A stretch of DNA of 64,000 nt from an uncultured Chloroflexia bacterium. GTDB lineage: Bacteria; Chloroflexota; Limnocylindria; Limnocylindrales; CSP1-4. Below the pieces are notes generated by a model that saw only the letters and a list, made by a program, of their open reading frames with translations, was not told the DNA's origin and searched no databases. Positions 47,185-59,702 of this stretch are shown here, piece after piece; the first letter of the stretch is position 1; each line of letters opens with the position of its first letter. The translations under genes and the position numbers were made by a program. The stretch lies in contig CAWFBS010000008.1 in NCBI GenBank assembly GCA_963814115.1, positions 520,160-584,159 on the forward strand. Reading direction: 5' to 3'.

Positions 47185-48516
47185 ATGGGCCGGCTCTTCG
47201 GGACGGACGGGATTCGCGGCGTCGCCAACGTGGACCTGCGACCCACGGTCGCCTACGCGCTGGGGAGGGCGGCCGCCCATGAGCTCGTCAGCCCCGGGGG
47301 AAGCCTGGTCGTGGGCCGGGACACCCGCCGCTCGGGCCAGATGTTCGCGGCGGCCATCGCGGCGGGCGCGGCCAGCCTGGGAGCGGACGTGCACGACGCG
47401 GGCGTTCTCCCCACGCCGGCGCTCGCCTACCTGGCCGGGACGGAGTCGTTCTCGGCCGGGATCATGGTGTCCGCCTCCCATAACCCGGCGGACGACAACG
47501 GACTCAAGGTGCTCGACGGCCGCGGCCTCAAGCTCGACGATGCCGAGGAGGACCGGCTGGAGCAGCTCATCTGGCGGACCGAGGAGCTGGGCGGCCCGCG
47601 GAATGGTGGCATCGGACGGCTGGTCCAGGCGTCCGACCTCGTCGACCGCTACCGGGCTGACCGCCTCCGCCTCGCCACCGCGACCCCCTGCCGCCTGCAT
47701 CTGGTGCTCGACTGCGCCAATGGCTCGGGCGGTGTCACTGCCCCGGAGATCCTCGCCGCGACAGGTGCCCGGGTCGACGTGATCCACAACCAGCCGGACG
47801 GGGAGAACATCAATGTCGCCTGCGGCGCCACTTCGCCCGCTGACCTGGCCAGGGAGGTCATCGCCAGGGGAGCCGATCTCGGGTTCGCGCTCGACGGCGA
47901 CGCGGATCGGCTCGTGGCGGTCGATCGCCAAGGCCGGGTCGTCGACGGCGACCAGCTGCTCGGGTTGTGCGCCCTGGATCGACTGGCCCGTGGGGCGCTC
48001 AACGGTGGCATCCTGGTCGTCACGGTGCTATCGAACGGAGGCCTGGAGGCCGCGCTCGGTGCGGTCGGCGGGCAGGTTGTCCGCACCCCTGTCGGCGACA
48101 AGTACATCCTCGACGGCATGCAGGTGACCGGCGCGAACCTCGGCGGTGAGAAGAGCGGCCACGTCATCATCCTGGACCATGCGACGTCGGGCGACGGCCT
48201 GGTCACCGCCCTGGAGGTTCTCGGCATCGTCGGCCGCATCGGTCGGCCGATCGACGAGCTGGCCGCCCGGATCCCGCTCTTTCCGCAGGAGCAGCGCGCG
48301 ATCCACGTGCGCCACAAGGAACAGTGGGAGGCGGACCCGGAGCTCCGGCGGGCAATCGCCGCCGCAGAGGCCCGATTCCCGATCGGCGGGCGCATCCTCG
48401 TTCGCCCGTCCGGCACGGAGCCGGTCCTGCGTGTCATGGTGGAGGGCCCGGACCCGGAGCTGGTGGCGACGCTCGCCGACGAACTCGCGGCCCTCGCACG
48501 AGACCGCCTAAACTAG
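47185..48516 (+). CDS. glmM: Phosphoglucosamine mutase
   Basis: LFGTDGIRG, SASHNP, DGDADR, GGEKSGH, RPSGTEP. Confidence 0.97.
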   Translation: MGRLFGTDGIRGVANVDLRPTVAYALGRAAAHELVSPGGSLVVGRDTRRSGQMFAAAIAAGAASLGADVHDAGVLPTPALAYLAGTESFSAGIMVSASHNPADDNGLKVLDGRGLKLDDAEEDRLEQLIWRTEELGGPRNGGIGRLVQASDLVDRYRADRLRLATATPCRLHLVLDCANGSGGVTAPEILAATGARVDVIHNQPDGENINVACGATSPADLAREVIARGADLGFALDGDADRLVAVDRQGRVVDGDQLLGLCALDRLARGALNGGILVVTVLSNGGLEAALGAVGGQVVRTPVGDKYILDGMQVTGANLGGEKSGHVIILDHATSGDGLVTALEVLGIVGRIGRPIDELAARIPLFPQEQRAIHVRHKEQWEADPELRRAIAAAEARFPIGGRILVRPSGTEPVLRVMVEGPDPELVATLADELAALARDRLN

Positions 48517-48564: not shown

Positions 48565-50394
<1,830 letters not shown>

Positions 50395-50397
50395 GGG

Positions 50398-50946
50398 ATG
50401 ACCGAGCCGGACGCGCGAGTCCCCGAGGGGACCGCCGAGCTCGGGCTGGACATCATCCGCGTGGAGCGCATCCGCGTGGCCCTGGCGCGCTTCGGCGATC
50501 GCTTCGTCCGGCGCGTGCTCACCACGCGGGAGGCTGCCTACGTGCGCGGGCGACCCGAGACGCTCGCCGGCCGGTGGGCAGCGAAGGAGGCGGTGAGCAA
50601 GGTGCTCGGCCTCGGCGTGCGCGGGATCGGCTGGCTGGACATCGAGATCGAGCGCTTGCCCACCGGTCAGCCGGCGGTCGTCCTCCACGGGCGGGCGGCC
50701 GCCCGGGCCGACCAGCTGGGGCTGGCGCGGATCGCCGTCAGCATCACGCATGAACGCGAGTACGCGCTCGCCATCGCCTTTGGTGTCCGGACCGCCGGTG
50801 GCCGCTACATCTTCCCGGCCGACATCGAGGAGCGGTTGGGGGAGCGCGAGGCGGCCCTGGTCCGCCGGATCGAGCGCATCCGCGGGCTGGGCCGGGAGGC
50901 TGCGTCGCTCGCCGCGACCGTGCGGGAGCCAGATCCCGATGCCTGA
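50398..50946 (+). CDS. acpS: Holo-ACP synthase with about 50-aa C-terminal extension
   Basis: GLDII, AGRWAAKEAVSKVLG, VSITHE. Confidence 0.92.
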   Translation: MTEPDARVPEGTAELGLDIIRVERIRVALARFGDRFVRRVLTTREAAYVRGRPETLAGRWAAKEAVSKVLGLGVRGIGWLDIEIERLPTGQPAVVLHGRAAARADQLGLARIAVSITHEREYALAIAFGVRTAGGRYIFPADIEERLGEREAALVRRIERIRGLGREAASLAATVREPDPDA

Positions 50947-51943
50947 CGCGCCGATCCTCCCCGAGCCCGGTGATCCGGTCGCGACCCGCCTGGACGAGCA
51001 GAGCGCCGGCCTCCTGCTGCCGGCGCGGCCGGGTCGCGGTCATAAGGGCACCTTCGGCAAGCTCCTCGTCGTGGCCGGATCGCTCGACTACGCGGGAGCG
51101 GCCCTCCTGGTGTGCCAGGCGGCCGGGCGCGCGGGGACGGGACTGGTCACGCTCGCGGTGCCCGAGTCCCTGCAGCCGCTCTTCGCGGCCAAGGTGGTCG
51201 AGGCAACCACGCTGGCACTCACCGAAGACGACGTCGAGGAAGTTGACCCGGCGCCCGCCCTGGCCCGGATCCTCGATCACGAGCACGATGCCCTCGTCGT
51301 CGGTCCGGGGCTGCGGCCGTCGCTCGCCTCCGCCGCCCTGATCCGGGGCATCCTCGCCGCGAGGGCAGAGGACGACGCCGCGCCCGCCGTCGTCGACGCG
51401 GAGGCGCTCCGCTCGCTCGCCGCCGAGGATGGCTGGTGGGAGGGCGTGATGCGGCCGTGCGTGCTCACGCCGCACGTGGGGGAATTCGGCCGGCTTCGAG
51501 CGGCCGGGGGGGTTGCCACCGGGGCCGACGGCGACCTCGCCGGTGATGATCCCGCCCGGCTCGAGGCCGCCCGCCACGCGGCGCGGGCCTGGGGCCAGGT
51601 CGTGGTCCTCAAGGGTGCGCACACGGTCATCGCGGCCCCGGACGGTGCCGCGGCGGTGGCGACGTTCGAGAACCCGGCACTCGCCACCGGCGGGACCGGC
51701 GACGTCCTGGCCGGGACGATCGGCGGCCTGCTGGCCCAGGGTCTCGACCCGTACCCGGCGGCGTGCCTTGGTGTCCAGCTCCACGGCATGGCGGGCGACG
51801 CCGTGCGACATCGGGTCGGGGACGCGGGGCTCCTCGCTGGTGATCTTCCCTTCGAGATCGCCCGTGCGCGTCACCGCCTGGCGGTCGATGCTGCTCGCCG
51901 GGCCGGCGCGAAACGGCTCGGGTTCGGGCGCCCAGCCGAATGA
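50939..51943 (+). CDS. nnrD: ADP-dependent NAD(P)H-hydrate dehydratase (stand-alone YjeF C-terminal domain)
   Basis: HKGTFG, GSLDYAGAALL, LTPHVGEF, LKGAHT, GGTGDVLAG; start ATG 50939. Confidence 0.93.
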   Translation: MPDAPILPEPGDPVATRLDEQSAGLLLPARPGRGHKGTFGKLLVVAGSLDYAGAALLVCQAAGRAGTGLVTLAVPESLQPLFAAKVVEATTLALTEDDVEEVDPAPALARILDHEHDALVVGPGLRPSLASAALIRGILAARAEDDAAPAVVDAEALRSLAAEDGWWEGVMRPCVLTPHVGEFGRLRAAGGVATGADGDLAGDDPARLEAARHAARAWGQVVVLKGAHTVIAAPDGAAAVATFENPALATGGTGDVLAGTIGGLLAQGLDPYPAACLGVQLHGMAGDAVRHRVGDAGLLAGDLPFEIARARHRLAVDAARRAGAKRLGFGRPAE

Positions 51944-53274
51944 CCGACCCCGCGGCGCCGATCGAGGAGCGCCTGCGGGCTGCCCGGCTCCCGCCGCTGC
52001 CGCGTACGGCCTGGCTTCAGGTCGACCTTGGACGGCTGGCCGGGAACGTGCGGGCGATGCGGGCGGCGCTGCCGGCAGACACCCTGTTCGAGGCCGTCGT
52101 GAAGGCCAATGGCTACGGCCACGGGGCCGTGCCGGTCGCGCACGCCGCGCTGGCTGCCGGCGCTCACGGGCTCTGTGTCGCAACGCTGGACGAGGGGCTC
52201 GAGCTCCGCGCGGCCGGCCTGCGTGCGCCGATTCTCGTGCTCTTTCCCATCCCGCCGGACGGTTTCGGAGAGGCTGCCCGGGCCGGGATCGCGGTGGCGG
52301 CCGGGGACGACCTCCTTTGGACCCGCGGCCTGGCCGCCTATGCGCGCAGCCGACGGCGCTCCCGGGGCCAGGTGGGCGAGCTGGTCGTTCACGTCGGCCT
52401 CGAAACCGGGCTGGGCCGGGATGGTCTCCGGCCCGAACAGGCGCTCGCAGCCGTGCGCGCCATGGCCGACGTGGCCGGTGCCCGTTTCGAGGGTGTCTGG
52501 TCGCATCTTCAGGCGCCCGAGGACCCGGCCCGGACCACCCACCAGGTCGAGCGGTTCGTGGCCGCGGTGCGGGCCCTGGTCGCGGCCGGGCTGCCGGTGC
52601 CGCATCGCCACCTCCTGGCCTCGGGTGGCCTGCTGGCGGTGGAGCGGTACGCAGGCGGCACGGCGCCCGTCTTCGACGGCGTCCGGGTGGGCCTCTCCCT
52701 CTACGGGATCGAACCACCCGGGCTCCGGATCGGGCCGGCCGCGAGCGTGATCAGCGCTTCGCTGCAGCCGGTCCTCTCGCTGCACGCCCGACCGGTCCGC
52801 GTGGCCGACCTGCCCACAGGCGAGGGCGTGGGGTACGGGCCCAGCTTCGTGACGGCGCGCCCCAGCCGGATCGCGACGCTGCCGGTCGGCTACGCGGACG
52901 GCTGGGTCCGCGCGCTGGGGAATCGCGCGACGGCGCTTGTCCGAGGCTCCCGGGTCCCCCTGGTCGGGACGGTCGCGATGGACGCCGTGATGGCCGACGT
53001 CACGGACGCACCCGGACCGCCCGTCACGCCCGATGACGAGTTCGTCCTCCTGGGCGAACAGGGTGCCGAACGGATCACCGCCGACGAGCTGGCGCGAGAG
53101 CGCACCACGATCAGCTGGGAGGTGCTTGCCACGATGGCTGGCCGCCTACCCCGGGTGTACACTTCGCCGGCCGACGCGGTCGGTATTCGCACGCTCACGC
53201 AGGACCGGGGGCCATGGCAGACATCGCGCTCTGGAACGGCGACATCTGCGACCTCGAGGTGGACGCGATCGTGA
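51940..53274 (+). CDS. alr: Alanine racemase
   Basis: AVVKANGYGHG (PLP Lys), GVWSH, GVGYG, GYADG, VAMD, ISWEVL. Confidence 0.93.
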   Translation: MTDPAAPIEERLRAARLPPLPRTAWLQVDLGRLAGNVRAMRAALPADTLFEAVVKANGYGHGAVPVAHAALAAGAHGLCVATLDEGLELRAAGLRAPILVLFPIPPDGFGEAARAGIAVAAGDDLLWTRGLAAYARSRRRSRGQVGELVVHVGLETGLGRDGLRPEQALAAVRAMADVAGARFEGVWSHLQAPEDPARTTHQVERFVAAVRALVAAGLPVPHRHLLASGGLLAVERYAGGTAPVFDGVRVGLSLYGIEPPGLRIGPAASVISASLQPVLSLHARPVRVADLPTGEGVGYGPSFVTARPSRIATLPVGYADGWVRALGNRATALVRGSRVPLVGTVAMDAVMADVTDAPGPPVTPDDEFVLLGEQGAERITADELARERTTISWEVLATMAGRLPRVYTSPADAVGIRTLTQDRGPWQTSRSGTATSATSRWTRS

Positions 53275-53744
53275 GCCCGGCCAGCCCGAACTTCTGGATG
53301 GCGACGGGCGTCGCGGGCGCGATCAAGCGCCGGGGTGGCGATGCGATCGAGTTCGCCGCAGTCCGACAGGGGCCCGCCGACGTGGGCGACGCGATCGTGA
53401 CCAGTGCAGGCTCGCTGGCGGCGCGCTGGGTCATCCACGCCGTCTCGCTGGACGCGACCCGCCGCACGGACTCCCGCACGATCGATCGCGCTGTCCGGAG
53501 TGCGTTCGCGCGTGCCCGGGATCTCGGCGTGGAGACGCTCGCGATCCCGGCACTCGGCACCGGCGTGGGCGGCTACCCGATCGCGGAGGCAGCCCGGGTG
53601 ACGATCGCCGCGGCTCGCGCCGAGCTGGTCCGCTCGCCGCGGATCACCCGCCTGACCCTCGCCCTCCGCGGCGCGGCCGCGTACGAGGCATTTCGCGTCG
53701 CGCTGGCGGCCGCGAAGGCAGCCCCCGTCGAGATTTCGGCGTGA
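53214..53744 (+). CDS. Macro domain protein (divergent catalytic loop)
   Basis: GDIC..VDAIV, GVAGAI, WVIHAV, AIPALGTGVGG. Confidence 0.9.
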   Translation: MADIALWNGDICDLEVDAIVSPASPNFWMATGVAGAIKRRGGDAIEFAAVRQGPADVGDAIVTSAGSLAARWVIHAVSLDATRRTDSRTIDRAVRSAFARARDLGVETLAIPALGTGVGGYPIAEAARVTIAAARAELVRSPRITRLTLALRGAAAYEAFRVALAAAKAAPVEISA

Positions 53745-54031
53745 CATTCTCCGTCCTCCCGGGCGATGAGCAGCGGGCCGCCCTGGTCGAGGAGGTGGCC
53801 CGCGAGATCCAGCTTTGTGGCATGACCGGGCCGGCGGTGCTGTTCCTCCATGCGAGCATGCCGGACGGTGGACTCGTGGGGAGCGCGATGACGTTCTTCG
53901 ACCCGGTCCTGCGCCAGCTCTTCGGAGGTGGAAGCGCACCCGCGAGCGCCCTGCTGGCGGACGAGGCCGGCATCGAGCAGCTGCTCGACCGGCTCGAGGA
54001 GCTCGACGAGGAGTCGGTCTGGGACGCGTGA
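53741..54031 (+). CDS. 96-aa hypothetical protein (not a separate ORF in the track)
   Basis: GTG overlaps the macro stop (GTGA) and its TGA overlaps the next GTG; it is the C-terminal part of track ORF 53033-54031. Confidence 0.75.
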   Translation: MTFSVLPGDEQRAALVEEVAREIQLCGMTGPAVLFLHASMPDGGLVGSAMTFFDPVLRQLFGGGSAPASALLADEAGIEQLLDRLEELDEESVWDA

Positions 54032-55749
54032 GCCGCGCCGAGGCCGAACCTGCCGTCCCCCTCGTCGATCGCGGGCCCGAGCTGCCCGGGGCCGCTCCGC
54101 TGCCTTCCCCGGCCATGGTTCCGGCGGACGTCGGCGACCCGTACGGCGCGTTCGTGACCCTCGACCTTGGCACCGCGACGTCCGCCGCAGCGATCGTCGG
54201 TCGCGTCGACGGACGCTGGCGCCTGCTGGCGGCCACGGCCCTCCCGGCCGGCGCCGACCGGGACGCGCTCGTCGGGCTGCTCGTGGAGCGCCTCCGAGCC
54301 GCGGACCCTGATCTCGCCGAGGTGACCGTGAACCGGCCGGCGGAAGGGCCCCAGCCACTTGACTGGCCCCGGCTCGTTGCGCAGAGCGTGCCAGCCGCGA
54401 CGCTCGCCGTCATCGCGGCCACCGAGCGCACCCGTGCCCGGCTGGAAGAGGCCGCCACAGGAGCCGGCTGGAATGTGGTCGCGGGCAGCGCCGAGCGGAC
54501 GGACCCGCTCGAGCTCACCCGGATGGCAACGCGCCCCGGCGTGGCGGCCCTCCTGGTCGGCGTGGCGGACCCACCCGATTCGGACGAGCGCGACCTGGCC
54601 GCCGAGCTGGCGGTCGCGGCAGCCGGGATCGCGGCGCGGCGCCCCGGCCTGCGCATCTTCCTGGCTGGATCCATCCCGGAGGCCCCCCTGCGTGAAATCC
54701 TGCGCGACCCGGCTTTGGTGCGGCTCGCGGCACCGGCCCGTGGCGCCGGGGAGCCGGCCGCCTCGAGCCTGCGGACGGCGCTGGCGGACGCGCGCCGCGG
54801 CCCGACGGACAGCCGCCGTGCCCTCGCTGCGGCCGCTGGGTCGCTTGCCCGCGTCCTGGGGCTGCGAGCGGAGATCCTCGAGATCGGCGTCACGGGAGCG
54901 GCGCGCATCCTGGCCGCCCCGACACCGGACCGCGACGGCGCCGGCGGGGTGAGCGTGGAGGTCGTGGAAGCGCCCGACGCAGCCCTGTTCCGGGTGAATG
55001 GCCCCGGGGCGATCGACCGGGTCGATCACTGGTTCACCCACGGCCTGGACCGGGCCCGCCTCCGCGACCGGCTGGCGGAGCTGGCGATCGCCCCCTGGAG
55101 CGATCTCGAGGGGGACGGCGCACTTCTCCGGGGAGCCGCCCTCCGCGCGGCACTGGAGCGCCTTCTTGAGGCGACCGTGCCCGTGCTCGGGGATGGTGGT
55201 GTGGATCTCGTGATCGGTGCGGGCGGGGCGTGGTCCGCGGTTCCCGGCCCCGCGGCGGCCCACATCATCGCCGACGTGGTCCGCCGGCCAGGGGCGATGC
55301 AGGTCGCGATCGACCACGCTCGAATCCTCGGCCCGATCGGGACGATCGAGGACGACTCGGAACGCGACGCGCTCGTCGCCGACCTTGCCGAGGACCTGCT
55401 CCTGCGGCTCGGGACGGTGGTCACACCGCGCGGCCTGCGACCGAACCGGCCGGCCGGGCACCTCGCGCTCACGACGAGCGGCGGGAGCTCCGAGGTCGAC
55501 CTGGTGGCCGGCGGGCTGACGCTCGTCGATCTGCCGCCCGGAGCGAGCGGCATGGCCGATCTCTCGTTCCGCGGAGCCCCTGAGCTTGGGACGCGCGGTC
55601 GGCGCTTCCAGATCCCGGTCACCGGCGGTCTCGCCGGCCTGCTGCTCGACCTGCGAGACATCCCACTCCGGCTGCCGGAGCGGCCCGACCGCCGGCGCGA
55701 GCTGCTCGGGACCTGGGAGGCGGCCCTGTGGCCGGAGCGCGACGCATGA
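54028..55749 (+). CDS. GlmL/MutL (glutamate mutase L)-like ASKHA-fold protein
   Basis: DLGTATS...RVDGRWRLL (phosphate-1), LEIGVTGA (phosphate-2-like), LVIGAGG (adenosine), C-terminal GGLAGLLLDLRDIPLRLP...W; start GTG 54028. Confidence 0.65.
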   Translation: MSRAEAEPAVPLVDRGPELPGAAPLPSPAMVPADVGDPYGAFVTLDLGTATSAAAIVGRVDGRWRLLAATALPAGADRDALVGLLVERLRAADPDLAEVTVNRPAEGPQPLDWPRLVAQSVPAATLAVIAATERTRARLEEAATGAGWNVVAGSAERTDPLELTRMATRPGVAALLVGVADPPDSDERDLAAELAVAAAGIAARRPGLRIFLAGSIPEAPLREILRDPALVRLAAPARGAGEPAASSLRTALADARRGPTDSRRALAAAAGSLARVLGLRAEILEIGVTGAARILAAPTPDRDGAGGVSVEVVEAPDAALFRVNGPGAIDRVDHWFTHGLDRARLRDRLAELAIAPWSDLEGDGALLRGAALRAALERLLEATVPVLGDGGVDLVIGAGGAWSAVPGPAAAHIIADVVRRPGAMQVAIDHARILGPIGTIEDDSERDALVADLAEDLLLRLGTVVTPRGLRPNRPAGHLALTTSGGSSEVDLVAGGLTLVDLPPGASGMADLSFRGAPELGTRGRRFQIPVTGGLAGLLLDLRDIPLRLPERPDRRRELLGTWEAALWPERDA

Positions 55750-56762
55750 CGGGCAGGCTGGACCTGGTCCCGCCCCGCGCCCTCCTCGTTGCGCGCCCGC
55801 GCGTCCGGCTGGAGCTGCAGCCGGGCGATCGGGTGATCGCCGAGATCGGCGAGGTCGTTCATGCGGGCGATGTGCTGGCGGAACGCGTCCGCGACGCCCG
55901 GCTCGTCGAGATGGTGCTGCCGCGGCACGGGGCAGACCAGGGGATCCCGCTGCCTGGCACCTGGCTGCCCGGCGAGCACGCCCGACCCGGCCGTCGCGCC
56001 GGCACGCCGGCCGGCGAGCTGCTCTTCGAGCACGCCGGCCGTCGCCGCCTGGCGGTCGGTCCGCACCCGGACCATCTCAACGCTCCGGCCGACGGCCGTC
56101 TCGTCGAGGTGCACCAGGGGGTCGCGCTCGTGCTCGAGATCGAGGGGCCGGGCCTGGTCGCCACCGAGCTGCTCGGGGAACCCTTCTCGGGCCGCCTGGT
56201 CCTGCTGCCGGAGGAGTCCGATCCACGTCTCGCGCTCGACGTCGCCCTTGCCGGGGCGGTGGTGGTCGTGCCGGGCCGGGTGGATGCGGAGGCGCTCACC
56301 CGGGCACGGGCGATGGGTATCCACGGTGCAGTGGTCGGATCGCTCGCCGAGCGCGATCGGCGTGACCTCGCGGCGTCGGCGGCCCGCCAGCAGGCCGGCC
56401 CCCACCACCTGGCGCCCTTCGGCGTGCTTGTGCTCGGCGGGTACCTTCGACGTGCCTTCCCGTCGGCAGTCCGGGCCGTCCTGGAGACGGTCGCTGGTGC
56501 GCTGGTCGGATCGGTCGGCGATCCTCCGTTGCTGCTGCTGCCGGCGGAGCGCCTGCTGCCGTCGCCGGAACCCGACCGCGTCATCGTCCGGGGTGGCCAG
56601 GAGGCGGGCAGCGAGGGCCGGTGGCTGGGACCCGGCGGACCTCGCCGCCTGCGTGGAGGCGTTGTGGTCGAGACCGGGCTCATTGTCCTCGACGACGGCC
56701 GGGCGCTAGCGGTCGCGATCGGGGACCTGGAGCGGTTCGCCGCTGACGTCGCCAACCAGTAG
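55746..56762 (+). CDS. Hypothetical protein with barrel-sandwich-hybrid-like segments and KOW/SH3-like C-terminus
   Basis: GEVVHAGDVLA and APADGRLVEV hybrid-motif-like segments; C-terminal RVIVRGGQEAGSEG; ATGA-coupled to the upstream gene. Confidence 0.6.
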   Translation: MTGRLDLVPPRALLVARPRVRLELQPGDRVIAEIGEVVHAGDVLAERVRDARLVEMVLPRHGADQGIPLPGTWLPGEHARPGRRAGTPAGELLFEHAGRRRLAVGPHPDHLNAPADGRLVEVHQGVALVLEIEGPGLVATELLGEPFSGRLVLLPEESDPRLALDVALAGAVVVVPGRVDAEALTRARAMGIHGAVVGSLAERDRRDLAASAARQQAGPHHLAPFGVLVLGGYLRRAFPSAVRAVLETVAGALVGSVGDPPLLLLPAERLLPSPEPDRVIVRGGQEAGSEGRWLGPGGPRRLRGGVVVETGLIVLDDGRALAVAIGDLERFAADVANQ

Positions 56763-56771: not shown

Positions 56772-57242
56772 ATGACCGCCGCCCTGTCGGAGCTTCGGCT
56801 CCTCGCGCCCGATCCGGCCGCGACGCGGGCGCTCGGCGAGCGCCTCGGACGTGCGGCGGCCGCCGGGGATGTCATCGCCCTCACGGGTCCGCTCGGCGCC
56901 GGCAAGACCGAGCTCGCCCGCGGCATCGCGCGCGGGCTCGGCGTGGTCGGCCCGGTCACCTCGCCCACGTTCGTCCTCGCCTCCGAGCACGAAGGGCGCC
57001 TCCCCTTGTTCCACCTCGACTGCTATCGCCTGGCCGGCCCGGAAGAGGCGCTCGCCGCGGGGCTTCTCGACGAGCGGGGTGCCGATGGCGTCACGGTGGT
57101 CGAGTGGGCCGAGCGCCTGGGACCGGCGCTTCCGACCGGGCGGCTGGAGATCCGGCTCGACGGGTCGGGTGACGACCCGCGCACGCTCGCCTGCCACGCC
57201 ACCGACCCGCGCCACCGAAGCCTCCTGGAGGCGCTGGCATGA
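56772..57242 (+). CDS. tsaE: t6A biosynthesis ATPase TsaE
   Basis: GPLGAGKT, SPTFVL, HLDCYRL, VEWAE. Confidence 0.97.
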   Translation: MTAALSELRLLAPDPAATRALGERLGRAAAAGDVIALTGPLGAGKTELARGIARGLGVVGPVTSPTFVLASEHEGRLPLFHLDCYRLAGPEEALAAGLLDERGADGVTVVEWAERLGPALPTGRLEIRLDGSGDDPRTLACHATDPRHRSLLEALA

Positions 57243-57958
57243 CGGCGGGCGGCGCGGGCGGGATGCTGCTGGCGCTCGACACCGCGACATCCCGGGCCGT
57301 CCTTGCGCTCGGGGCGGCCGACGGGACGCTGCTCGCCGCCGACACCTGGCCGGCCGGGCATCGCCACGTGGAAGAGCTCCTGCCGCGCCTGGAGGCGCTC
57401 CTCGCCGGGCATGGCTGGGATCGGGGCGCGCTTGCCGACCTGGCTGGGATCGTCGTGGGGACGGGGCCGGGGGCCTTCACCGGTCTCCGGGTCGGGCTGG
57501 CCACCGCCAAGGCCCTTGCGGTGGCCTTTCGCAAGCCGCTGGTCGCCGTCGGGAGCGGGGTCGCGCTGCTCGCCGCGGCGGAGGCGGCGGAGGCGGACCC
57601 AGCGACCGACGGCCGGCGCCTGGCGCTGCTCCTGCCCGCGGGCCCGTCCGGCCGCTACCTTGTGACGCGGGCCGGAACGCAGCTCGTGGTCGGCTCGGAT
57701 CATCCCGACCTCCCGGCCGATGCGCTGCTCGTCGCCGTGGATCTCGCCGGGCGCGCCCCGGCTGCGGCACGTGCACGCGGCGAGGCCGCCACGGACCGCC
57801 TTCCCGGGGTCCTGCTCCGCCTGGGTGCCGCACGTCTCGCGGCGGGAGACTCCGACGACCCCGCGCGGGTGGTCCCCGAGTACGTGACGCTCCCGCGCGG
57901 GTCGCGGGCGACGCCGGGCGCCGAGGAAGGAATGACGTGGTCGCCCGTCCGCCGGTGA
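57239..57958 (+). CDS. tsaB: t6A biosynthesis protein TsaB
   Basis: LALDTAT, HVEELLP, GPGAFTGLRVG. Confidence 0.93.
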   Translation: MTAGGAGGMLLALDTATSRAVLALGAADGTLLAADTWPAGHRHVEELLPRLEALLAGHGWDRGALADLAGIVVGTGPGAFTGLRVGLATAKALAVAFRKPLVAVGSGVALLAAAEAAEADPATDGRRLALLLPAGPSGRYLVTRAGTQLVVGSDHPDLPADALLVAVDLAGRAPAAARARGEAATDRLPGVLLRLGAARLAAGDSDDPARVVPEYVTLPRGSRATPGAEEGMTWSPVRR

Positions 57959-58503
57959 AGCTCTCGATCGAGCCGATGACGTTCGACGACCTGCCGGCGG
58001 TGCAGGCGATCGAGCGGGCCAGCTTCACGACACCCTGGCCGACCCACGCCTACCAAGCGGAGCTCGAGACGAACAAGCTCGCGCGCTACCTCGTGGTCCG
58101 AGCGGGCCGTGAGGTCATTGCCTACGCCGGAATCTGGCTGATGGTCGACGAGGCGCACGTCACGACGTTCGCGGTCGCGCCCGCTTGGCGCCGCCGGAGG
58201 ATCGGGGAGCGCCTCCTCGTGGCAGCCCTGGATCTGTCGATGGCGCGTGGGGCACGCGAGGCGACCCTGGAGGTGCGCCTCTCGAACGTCCCAGCGCGTC
58301 GTCTCTACGAGAAGTACGGCTTCCGGCCGGTCGGGATCCGGCCGCGCTACTACAGTGACGACCACGAGGACGCATTGATCATGACAACCGAGCCGCTCCA
58401 GTCGCCGGGCATGCGAGCTCGCCTCGCAGCGCTCACCGCGGAGCTGGCGGGGCTGCCCGACCCGGACCCTCCGGACACCGACCTGCCCGGTGGTTCCGGA
58501 TGA
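57937..58503 (+). CDS. rimI: Ribosomal protein S18 N-acetyltransferase RimI
   Basis: GTG 57937 after GAGGAAGG; EAHVTTFAV, LEVRLSN..ARRLYEKYGF, RPRYYSD..EDA. Confidence 0.95.
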   Translation: MVARPPVKLSIEPMTFDDLPAVQAIERASFTTPWPTHAYQAELETNKLARYLVVRAGREVIAYAGIWLMVDEAHVTTFAVAPAWRRRRIGERLLVAALDLSMARGAREATLEVRLSNVPARRLYEKYGFRPVGIRPRYYSDDHEDALIMTTEPLQSPGMRARLAALTAELAGLPDPDPPDTDLPGGSG

Positions 58504-59702
58504 GCGGACGGGCCTCCCTCGTGCTCGCGATCGAGTCGTCCTGCGACGAGACCGGGGTCGCGCTCGTCGCAGGCGGGCGCCGGATCCTGGCCCAGGCGGT
58601 CGCGAGCCAGATCGCCCTGCACGCACCGGCCGGCGGGATCGTGCCCGAGCTCGCGGCCCGGGCACACCTACGCTGGATCGTGCCCGCGCTGGAGGACGTG
58701 CTGGCGACGACGAGCGTCACGATGACCGAGGTCGATGCGATCGCGGTGACGGCCGGCCCGGGTCTGGCCGGATCGCTCCTGGTGGGCATTGCCTTCGCCA
58801 AGACCCTGGCCTGGGCGTACCGGCGCCCACTCGTCGGGGTCAACCACCTCGAGGGCCACCTGTACGCGGCATGGCTGCTTGATCCCGGCGAACCAGAGCG
58901 TCCGGAGCCGCCGTTCCCGCTCGTAGCGCTTGTCGTGTCCGGCGGGCACACGTTCCTCGTCGAGATGCGGGATCACATCACCTACCGGCTCCTCGGGGAG
59001 ACCGTCGACGATGCCGCCGGCGAGGCGTTCGACAAGGTCGGTCGGCTCCTCGGCCTGGGGTACCCGGGTGGACCCGCGATCGCCGCCGCGGCAGCCCGCT
59101 CGCAAGTCCACGACGCGGCCTTCCCGCGGGCGTGGCTGGGGAGGTCGTACGACTTCAGCTTCTCCGGCCTCAAGACGGCACTGCGGCGCCAGGTCGAGAT
59201 GGAGCTGGCGGCAGCGGGCCGGCCGGCAACAGAGGCGGGTGGACGGCTCGACCCGGCCCGCGTCACGGAGCTGGCCTGGGGCTTTCAGGAGGCAGTGGTC
59301 GACGTGCTGGCCGTCAAGACCCTCCGCGCCGCCGACGAGACGGCTGCCCGGGCCATCGTCATGGGTGGTGGCGTCGCCTCGAACGTCGCGCTCCGCGAGC
59401 GCATCTCGGCCGGCGCCGCGACTCGTGGCCTGCCCCTCTTCGTCCCGCGCCCCGGCCTATGCACGGACAACGGCGCGATGATCGGGGCCGCGGGGTGGCG
59501 AAGGTTCCTCGCCGGCGAGCGCGCCGGCGAGGACCTCGGGGCGAGACCGGCCTGGCCCCTCGTTCGTCCCGGCGGGGCGCCGGACACCCGCCGGCCTCCC
59601 CGAAGGGGGGCCGCCGCGAGGGCCTACGAGGTCGCCCTGGCCGCCGAGCGCGACGGCGCCGGCGGCGCGCCGGTCCCGGCCGAGCGCGGGCAGACGCTGT
59701 GA
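58500..59702 (+). CDS. tsaD: t6A threonylcarbamoyltransferase TsaD
   Basis: LAIESSCDET, NHLEGH, SGGHT, GEAFDK, FSFSGLKT, TDNGAMI. Confidence 0.97.
   Translation: MSGRASLVLAIESSCDETGVALVAGGRRILAQAVASQIALHAPAGGIVPELAARAHLRWIVPALEDVLATTSVTMTEVDAIAVTAGPGLAGSLLVGIAFAKTLAWAYRRPLVGVNHLEGHLYAAWLLDPGEPERPEPPFPLVALVVSGGHTFLVEMRDHITYRLLGETVDDAAGEAFDKVGRLLGLGYPGGPAIAAAAARSQVHDAAFPRAWLGRSYDFSFSGLKTALRRQVEMELAAAGRPATEAGGRLDPARVTELAWGFQEAVVDVLAVKTLRAADETAARAIVMGGGVASNVALRERISAGAATRGLPLFVPRPGLCTDNGAMIGAAGWRRFLAGERAGEDLGARPAWPLVRPGGAPDTRRPPRRGAAARAYEVALAAERDGAGGAPVPAERGQTL

Follow-up and report, generated by a model that had tools for sequence, protein, structure and literature searches.

Does a GlmL-like protein whose nucleotide-site motifs depart from those of its family still use nucleotide, or has it become a pseudo-ATPase? 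This question is raised by the protein P0001, which is encoded in a 64,000-nucleotide stretch of DNA (the window, with a GC content of 66-76%) from an uncultured Chloroflexia bacterium (GTDB lineage Chloroflexota; Limnocylindria; Limnocylindrales; CSP1-4). The window covers positions 520,160-584,159 of the forward strand of contig CAWFBS010000008.1 in assembly GCA_963814115.1, and the family of the host is coded f1 in the counts below. The gene was characterized by its open reading frame (ORF), its homologues, a structural model and profile alignment with hhalign:

54028-55749, plus strand: P0001, GlmL/MutL-like ASKHA protein, 573 amino acid residues

The original prediction had described a GlmL-like protein with degenerate ASKHA motifs, a possible pseudo-ATPase with a scaffold or polymer role. 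We consider it somewhat more probable than its contrary that P0001 belongs, as the ASKHA subunit, to an uncharacterised GlmL-family system in a reduced form that has no membrane proteins, and that in a complex with its partner protein it serves as a nucleotide-dependent switch or weak ATPase. The homology, the fold, the reduction of the operon and the pattern of the motifs are established by the comparisons presented here. The family-wide loss of the membrane half of the system and the residue-level account of the changes in the ASKHA protein are new.

The AlphaFold model of P0001 was built from 32 homologues and has a predicted local distance difference test score (pLDDT) of 85.2 and a predicted template modelling score (pTM) of 0.86. 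Comparison with the PDB by Foldseek gave 389 matches at E<=1e-3, and the top matches listed are ASKHA proteins. A Foldseek probability of 1.0 was obtained for hydantoinase-type carboxylase subunits, Hsp70s, PilM, glycerol and xylulose kinases and BcrAD/HgdC-type activators. With VIA-align, Z values of 9.6-11.6 were found over residues 38-448 for FtsA, HgdC-type activators, EutJ, acetone carboxylase and glycerol kinase; those for FtsA and the HgdC-type activators were 10-11.6 and covered residues 39-445. The model contains two RNase-H-like β3-α-β2-α domains flanking a cleft, the first beginning at residue 39 and the second ending at about residue 457. It supports an ASKHA fold with a flavodoxin-like insert, so that the fold supposed in the original prediction is the one predicted by the structural comparison. 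Three further parts of the chain are distinguished:

54028-54141, plus strand: disordered Pro/Ala-rich N-terminal extension, residues 1-38 (pLDDT ~31-48)
54388-54810, plus strand: flavodoxin-like domain, residues 121-261, inserted in ASKHA domain I (VIA-align)
55399-55746, plus strand: C-terminal β domain and helix, residues 458-573 (model and clade comparison)

The N-terminal extension had been noticed before as a Pro-rich segment of about 40 residues, and this description holds: nine of the first 40 residues are Pro and residues 1-36 have pLDDT below 50. Its column entropy (2.27) exceeds that of every other region, its length varies among homologues, and it is absent in deeper relatives such as P0096-P0113. 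We read it as a lineage-specific disordered tail. The flavodoxin-like insert, which dominated the VIA search with the whole model, aligns at Z 10-12 and a root-mean-square deviation (rmsd) of ~3 Å over 110-130 residues with flavodiiron flavodoxin domains, CheY receivers and B12-binding domains, tied in score. The C-terminal domain consists of seven strands and a helix, with pLDDT of ~88-94 up to residue 540 and 61-81 over the terminal helix. It is the best conserved region of P0001 (lowest entropy, 1.06), and distant homologues from the phylum align chiefly via profile positions 350-550. Since the GlmL of Escherichia coli stops near residue 455 and has no counterpart of it, the C-terminal domain is, as judged by this alignment, specific to the operon-type clade described below.

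The presence of FtsA and PilM among the fold matches might suggest that P0001 forms an actin-like filament, cytomotive or scaffolding, as FtsA, MreB or ParM do, and the first phosphate loop of P0001 is similar to those of Hsp70 and MreB. However, the FtsA alignments in VIA-align have rmsd values of 9-10 Å and score no better than those of non-polymerising ASKHA enzymes. The sequence relatives belong to the GlmL/hydantoinase branch and not to the actin branch, the core is decorated by a 140-residue flavodoxin-like insert and a 115-residue C-terminal domain, and filament-associated partners are absent. A filament is thus very improbable. Nothing was found in support of the polymer role suggested earlier; the adjacent partner gene and the ancestral operon of membrane proteins point instead to a subunit of a complex.

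The usual resources do not recognise the family of this protein. Scans of P0001 against Pfam and NCBIfam gave no match, even at E<=10. The same scans of the 32 aligned relatives gave nothing significant, with the GlmL/MutL family PF13941 appearing in one of 32 at E 0.25, and a search of the whole host genome with PF13941 was empty. Of 201 genomes sampled from the phylum, 60 gave homologues when searched with a profile of the P0001 family, and ten of these homologues were translated and scanned against Pfam. Seven from distant families matched PF13941 (2.1e-64 to 3.7e-29), as did a syntenic orthologue of the same class, L018 (1.8e-20); two of the ten, from genus g57 (L023) and family f1 (L014), gave no significant PF13941 match. 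Alignment by hhalign of the target family with eight homologues that match PF13941 at 1e-29 to 1e-64 gave a probability of 99.66% and E 3.4e-25 over 523 columns. The model fold, the PF13941-positive homologues, this profile alignment and the conserved synteny identify P0001, by remote methods, as a PF13941 relative that has drifted past the reach of the family hidden Markov model (HMM). The assignment to GlmL-like ASKHA proteins in the original prediction is therefore supported by hhalign, Foldseek and VIA-align, while Pfam and NCBIfam are silent. For annotation, this means that neither resource detects PF13941 relatives across an entire family-level clade.

The Pfam description ties MutL to the hydantoinase branch. 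Subunits of hydantoinase A and of acetone and acetophenone carboxylases (5l9w, 5m45, 9h03) are the top Foldseek matches of P0001 (E 7.5e-8, probability 1.0), and acetone carboxylase aligns over 315 residues in VIA-align with Z 9.9. These enzymes nevertheless differ from P0001, with ~10-13% identity and a template modelling score of ~0.25 over the whole chain, and P0001 has neither a hydantoinase B partner nor a Pfam match. The P0001 profile gave chance matches alone (E ~1) among the PDB chain sequences, and the profile of canonical homologues and E. coli GlmL gave no match there. Because these searches returned no family match, there appears to be no solved structure of the GlmL family.

The nucleotide-site motifs were compared in two ways. 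Residues were counted over 107 full-length relatives of P0001, and an alignment was made of E. coli GlmL, nine homologues from the phylum, four orthologues of the same class and thirteen members of the target family. The family signature was derived here from E. coli GlmL and eight canonical homologues. Four sites are of interest, the first three placed by counts and alignment and the fourth by alignment:

54163-54183, plus strand: phosphate-1 motif DLGTATS, residues 46-52
54877-54900, plus strand: phosphate-2 motif LEIGVTGA, residues 284-291
55213-55227, plus strand: adenosine motif IGAGG, residues 396-400
54568-54591, plus strand: DPPDSDER loop, residues 181-188, in place of the family GG-T/V-DGG loop

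The motif strings named in the original prediction, DLGTATS (D46), LEIGVTGA (E285) and IGAGG (G397), are present in the 573-residue translation. In the model D46 follows strand 41-47, E285 closes strand 281-286 and G399-G400 follow strand 394-398, all three with block pLDDT of ~92-94 and at the positions that the ASKHA fold requires.

The phosphate-1 motif has the superfamily pattern D-x-G-[ST]-x-x-[ST] after strand 1, and its residues D46 (104 Asp and 3 Glu of the 107), G48 (all 107) and T51 (103 Thr, 4 Ser) are kept in 97-100% of the relatives. The canonical family form is D-x-G-S-x-x-T-K/R, while the target family reads D-x-G-T-A-T-x-A; position 53 is Lys or Arg in none of the 107, although E. 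coli GlmL and the canonical homologues have Thr-Lys/Arg there. The adenosine motif also follows the superfamily pattern (G-G-x-x-x-x-P/G) as G399-G400...P406-G407, that is, GG-x5-PG, with G399 in 103, G400 in 107 and P406, six residues on, in 101 sequences. Its G-A-G-G is kept in the target family, and E. coli GlmL has GSGG at the aligned place. The phosphate-2 motif is different. The superfamily pattern after the first strand of domain II, D-x-G-[GA]-G-T-x-[DE], corresponds to E-I-G-V-T-G-A in P0001, in which the carboxylate, G287 and G290 are kept and Gly-Gly-Thr is absent; within the family, D-x-G-G/A-x-T-T has become E/D-I/V-G-x-S/T-G-A. Position 285 is Glu in 89 and Asp in 18 sequences, G287 and R293 are found in all 107, and G290 in 104.

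The heaviest erosion, a point beyond the earlier description, is in the conserved loops of the flavodoxin-like insert. The canonical G-G-T/V-D-G-G is replaced by G-x-x-D-P-P-x-x-D-E-R, Y-A-G-N by L-A-G-x, and in P-N-x-R-P the Asn is gone. The new loop is itself well conserved (P182 in 103, E187 in 107 and R188 in 106 of the relatives). P0001 thus departs from the GlmL signature at phosphate-1 (Thr-Lys/Arg to x-Ala), at phosphate-2 (Thr-Thr to Gly-Ala) and at the replaced GGxDGG and AGN.

By superfamily standards the phosphate-1 and adenosine motifs are ordinary and phosphate-2 alone is unusual; the residues specific to the GlmL family are really lost. The claim of degenerate motifs is accordingly right in part. 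Glu in place of Asp, the missing Gly-Gly-Thr and the loss of family residues agree with it; the other two motifs follow the superfamily patterns, and the remaining site residues are near-invariant in relatives that differ widely overall (42-88% identity). This conservation, together with a carboxylate always present at position 285, suggests that the site is still under selection. The pattern agrees better with a nucleotide site that has been remodelled and remains in use than with a dead site.

The genomic setting of the gene gives further information. ORFs from 14 related loci and the window were clustered, with Pfam and hydropathy used for membrane content, and the operon was rebuilt from loci L015-L027. 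The conserved order is small protein, DUF6754 protein with two transmembrane (TM) segments, 6-TM protein, zinc-ribbon bitopic protein, 6-7-TM protein, GlmL-like protein and partner. This seven-gene arrangement is that of most of the phylum. In the window only three of these genes are found, P0001 being flanked by the other two:

53741-54031, plus strand: small 96-residue protein, cluster c4/c42, conserved at the head of the GlmL-like operon (HMM)
55746-56762, plus strand: partner protein c1, 338 residues (synteny, HMM and model)

P0001 has the C-terminal motif GG..G...D.R..PL.LP of the operon-type proteins and the adjacent gene for the three-domain partner, but no co-operonic DUF6754 protein, two polytopic membrane proteins or zinc-ribbon bitopic protein. 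The four membrane genes are absent at the locus both in the window and in L014, which is from another genus of family f1. HMMs of these four genes, built from other genomes, found none of them in the host genome (95.9% complete), and in the same run the retained genes were recovered (P0001 at 1e-68, partner at 1.5e-29, small protein at 3.4e-16). The counts by family, coded as above, are as follows:

family f1 (the host's): DUF6754 in 0/17 genomes, GlmL-like gene in 17/17
sister family f3: DUF6754 in 18/20, GlmL-like gene in 19/20
family f52: DUF6754 in 0/19, GlmL-like gene in 1/19 (a fragment)
family f2: DUF6754 in 0/3, GlmL-like gene in 0/3

The system of P0001 is a reduced version of the GlmL-like operon system, of which the membrane half has been lost family-wide. 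A similar reduction is found in the unrelated genus g57, in which the ASKHA gene and partner alone are kept, DUF6754 occurs in 0/3 genomes, the ASKHA protein has no Pfam match and the motifs are eroded further. The P0001 locus has in common with the full operon the small first gene, the three-domain partner downstream and an ASKHA protein that is orthologous and ends in the same C-terminal domain (GG-x-x-G-x-x-x-D-x-R-x-P-L-x-L-P ... W); it differs in the four missing membrane genes, in the silence of PF13941 and in the replacement of insert loops by DPPxxDER.

Three observations from the related loci may be added. In the g57 example L023:5746-8605 (G161) T-G-D stands at the place of the adenosine motif, and the Gly of phosphate-2 has probably been lost, the alignment in the phosphate-2 region being uncertain. 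In sister family f3, loci L015-L018 keep the membrane genes and the phosphate-1 Thr-Lys, but have the adenosine motif G-S-G-R and not G-x-G-G; motif drift is for this reason not confined to the reduced lineages. At L024:2232-4931, in a distant relative, the zinc-ribbon protein of the operon has a long acidic stretch of tandem repeats, with units that contain DDTPDWLKSMQ, between the zinc ribbon and the TM segment.

The loss of the operon partners could mean that the gene itself is a decaying remnant heading for loss. Its protein evolves fast, and two sister families are nearly or wholly without it (f52 and f2). However, P0001 is a real gene, as it has 112 homologues at E<=1e-91 and occurs in every f1 genome, across eight genera. 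The reading frame is intact with no internal stops, the alignment of 32 sequences contains 60 invariant columns, and the 4-nucleotide coupled junctions with the neighbours are retained. A remnant is hardly credible. From a set of 1.84 billion, the family profile retrieves 985 representative proteins at E<=1e-3, and 158 remain at E<=1e-30.

The partner c1 has 425 homologues and adjoins the GlmL-like gene in all 14 loci with flank available. Its model (pLDDT 83.6) has three domains: a barrel-sandwich hybrid resembling NqrA, RnfC and BCCP at Z ~8, a swivelling β/β/α domain resembling RraA (Z 9.7) and the phospho-His domain of Enzyme I (Z 9.2), and a KOW-like domain. A phospho-relay via the swivelling domain was considered and rejected, the family consensus having no conserved His at the phospho-His position. 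The small protein in the window was found by an HMM made from copies of other genomes alone (E as given above), and the copy in L014 is 61% identical to it.

Nonsynonymous divergence (dN) was calculated between the host genome and L014, the comparison being based on dN alone, since synonymous divergence (dS) of ~1 is saturated and the ratio omega, 0.4-0.6 for P0001 and 0.24-0.34 for neighbours, is relative only. The values for P0001 (0.63) and the partner (0.61) are raised and nearly equal, while those for glmS, tsaD, tsaE, tsaB and the small protein are 0.25-0.42. The near-equality of the two raised values is consistent with P0001 and its partner evolving together.

These results allow us to propose the following sequence of events. 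An ancestral seven-gene operon has lost its four membrane genes in family f1 and kept the small protein, the ASKHA protein and the partner, translationally coupled. The nucleotide pocket would still work, with the Mg-ligand carboxylates of phosphate-1 and phosphate-2, the glycine loops and the adenosine Gly-Gly kept, while the way phosphate is handled would have been remodelled, together with the ligand site in the flavodoxin-like insert. This combination of a retained pocket with remodelled phosphate handling and insert site suggests that P0001, bound to its partner, most likely acts as a nucleotide-dependent switch or weak ATPase, and not as a reactivase of a B12 mutase or as a filament. We read P0001 as a fast-evolving and probably still nucleotide-binding subunit of a reduced soluble module.

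Several points weigh against this proposal. The roles of the residues are borrowed from the ASKHA superfamily by analogy. Most active ASKHA ATPases contact the phosphates with a Gly-Gly-Thr in phosphate-2; P0001 lacks it, as it lacks the Thr-Lys/Arg that the family conserves in phosphate-1, so hydrolysis could be abolished; the conservation of the remaining residues could come from structural and not catalytic needs. In addition, the absence of the membrane genes is based on HMM searches of draft genomes.

The strongest competing explanation is a true pseudo-ATPase, an ASKHA fold that perhaps holds nucleotide but performs no hydrolysis, its one role being to scaffold the partner and the small protein. 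Apart from the polymer, this is the idea of the original prediction; it is possible, if rather doubtful. In its favour are the loss of Thr-Lys/Arg at phosphate-1, of Thr-Thr at phosphate-2 and of GGxDGG, AGN and PNxRP, the failure of Pfam and NCBIfam to recognise P0001 and a dN about twice that of the neighbours; the change of the motifs also coincides, in two separate lineages, with the loss of presumed energy-consuming membrane partners. However, D46, G48, T51, the carboxylate at 285, G287, G290 and G399-G400 are near-invariant across the 107 relatives, and the alternation of Asp and Glu at 285 suggests selection for a metal-binding carboxylate.

The other explanation to be compared is that P0001 works as a genuine GlmL does, as the chaperone or reactivase of a coenzyme-B12 enzyme whose gene lies elsewhere in the genome. 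MutL/GlmL has been mentioned in passing as a reactivating chaperone (PMC4682846). The bona fide reference is the GlmL of E. coli O157:H7 Sakai (ECs_0763, L028:36327-37715, minus strand), from a glmS-glmL-glmE cluster. GlmL/MutL, the accessory protein of B12-dependent glutamate (methylaspartate) mutase, has like P0001 an ASKHA core with a flavodoxin-like insert. The E. coli protein can be aligned with P0001 from phosphate-1 to about residue 455, and they have in common D46, G48, G214, the phosphate-2 carboxylate and Gly and the adenosine Gly-Gly. This remote family membership, the flavodoxin- or B12-binding-like fold of the insert and a genome that encodes, elsewhere, two methylmalonyl-CoA-mutase-type genes and five B12-binding domains are in favour of a reactivase.

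However, P0001 has no direct PF13941 match, lacks the phosphate-1 Thr-Lys, the phosphate-2 Thr-Thr, AGN and the GGTDGG loop, of the GGxDGG type, of E. coli GlmL, and carries an extra C-terminal domain of 115 residues, typical of its clade and missing from bona fide GlmL. While the glmL genes of Clostridium and E. coli O157:H7 stand beside glmS/glmE, the neighbours of P0001 are alr, a macro-domain gene, the small protein, the partner and tsaE. The glutamate mutase E subunit (PF06368/GlmE) was not found in the host genome, no B12 enzyme occurs near P0001 or in any of the 14 related loci, and its partners in the ancestral operon are membrane proteins. A B12 reactivase is therefore improbable. The diol dehydratase reactivase DdrA/DdrB and EutA combine an ASKHA ATPase, a flavodoxin-like module and a swivelling domain, and are conceptually like P0001 with its partner. 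They are absent among the fold matches listed for P0001, which proves nothing, and differ in that its neighbourhood has no B12 enzyme.

Returning to the switch or weak ATPase bound to a partner, a broader form of this idea is that the ASKHA protein, the swivel-domain partner and the small protein together make up a soluble nucleotide-switch module which is autonomous and forms the functional core of the widespread seven-gene system, and that family f1 and genus g57 independently shed the membrane half and remodelled the phosphate-handling residues. We consider this unlikely, but if true it would be a natural dissection of the system, with ATP turnover tied to the membrane complex and a separate, membrane-independent job for the pair. 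The residues altered upon the loss of the membrane genes point to the positions most likely to couple nucleotide turnover to the membrane complex. A literature search for DUF6754 gave nothing, and no paper on the Chloroflexota GlmL-like operon was found. The operon thus occurs across Chloroflexota with no described function found in the literature and no family match to PDB sequences, and the minimal soluble set of ATPase-fold protein, partner and small protein is far easier to express, assay and crystallise than a membrane complex.

The genes around P0001 in the window, in addition to those already given, are the following:

47185-48516, plus strand: glmM
48565-50394, plus strand: glmS
50750-51943, plus strand: NAD(P)H-hydrate dehydratase
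51940-53274, plus strand: alr
53214-53744, plus strand: macro-domain gene, 176 residues, opening the coupled run (ORF and translation; domain assigned by reading the sequence)
56772-57242, plus strand: tsaE
57239-57958, plus strand: tsaB
58500-59702, plus strand: tsaD

The three junctions from the macro gene to the 338-residue partner gene are 4-nucleotide overlaps (GTGA, GTGA and ATGA), each with a GGAG-like stretch upstream. These are the usual sign of translational coupling, and the run from the macro gene through the small protein and P0001 to the partner is probably coupled in this way. In the last junction the ATG of the partner overlaps the stop codon of P0001. P0001 starts at 54028 with a GTG that shares nucleotides with the stop codon of the small ORF before it and lies in the same column as the ATG-encoded Met of P0002 and P0004; the start chosen in the original prediction is correct, as close homologues begin with Met there. 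In the same class, homologues occupy the equivalent position, with alr/macro on one side and, on the other, the partner gene and then tsaE. A functional tie to the neighbours alr and tsaEBD was set aside, this synteny being confined to the class.

In genus g4 of family f1, the GlmL-like gene matches as two pieces (profile ~13-220 and ~195-551) in four genomes:

G151:C2:120963-122834
G169:C6:27797-29791
G210:C21:12916-14883
G214:C110:17768-19669

The N-terminal piece contains one internal TAG in G151, G169 and G210 and none in G214. These matches may represent a split gene, an insertion in the flavodoxin-like domain or read-through.

The start of the macro ORF and the 3' end of the alr ORF share 61 nucleotides (53214-53274), and the Pfam alanine-racemase C-terminal domain stops at residue 407 of 444 in alr. 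Because of this overlap and the early end of the domain, one of the two boundaries may be wrongly placed, either the macro start or the 37-residue tail of alr. As in the window, the small first gene of the operon comes after a macro-domain gene at L027:1111-2130 (G044), from another family of the phylum; the two genes are adjacent in L015 and L016 as well as in the distant L027, and in some lineages the macro domain may be part of the system.

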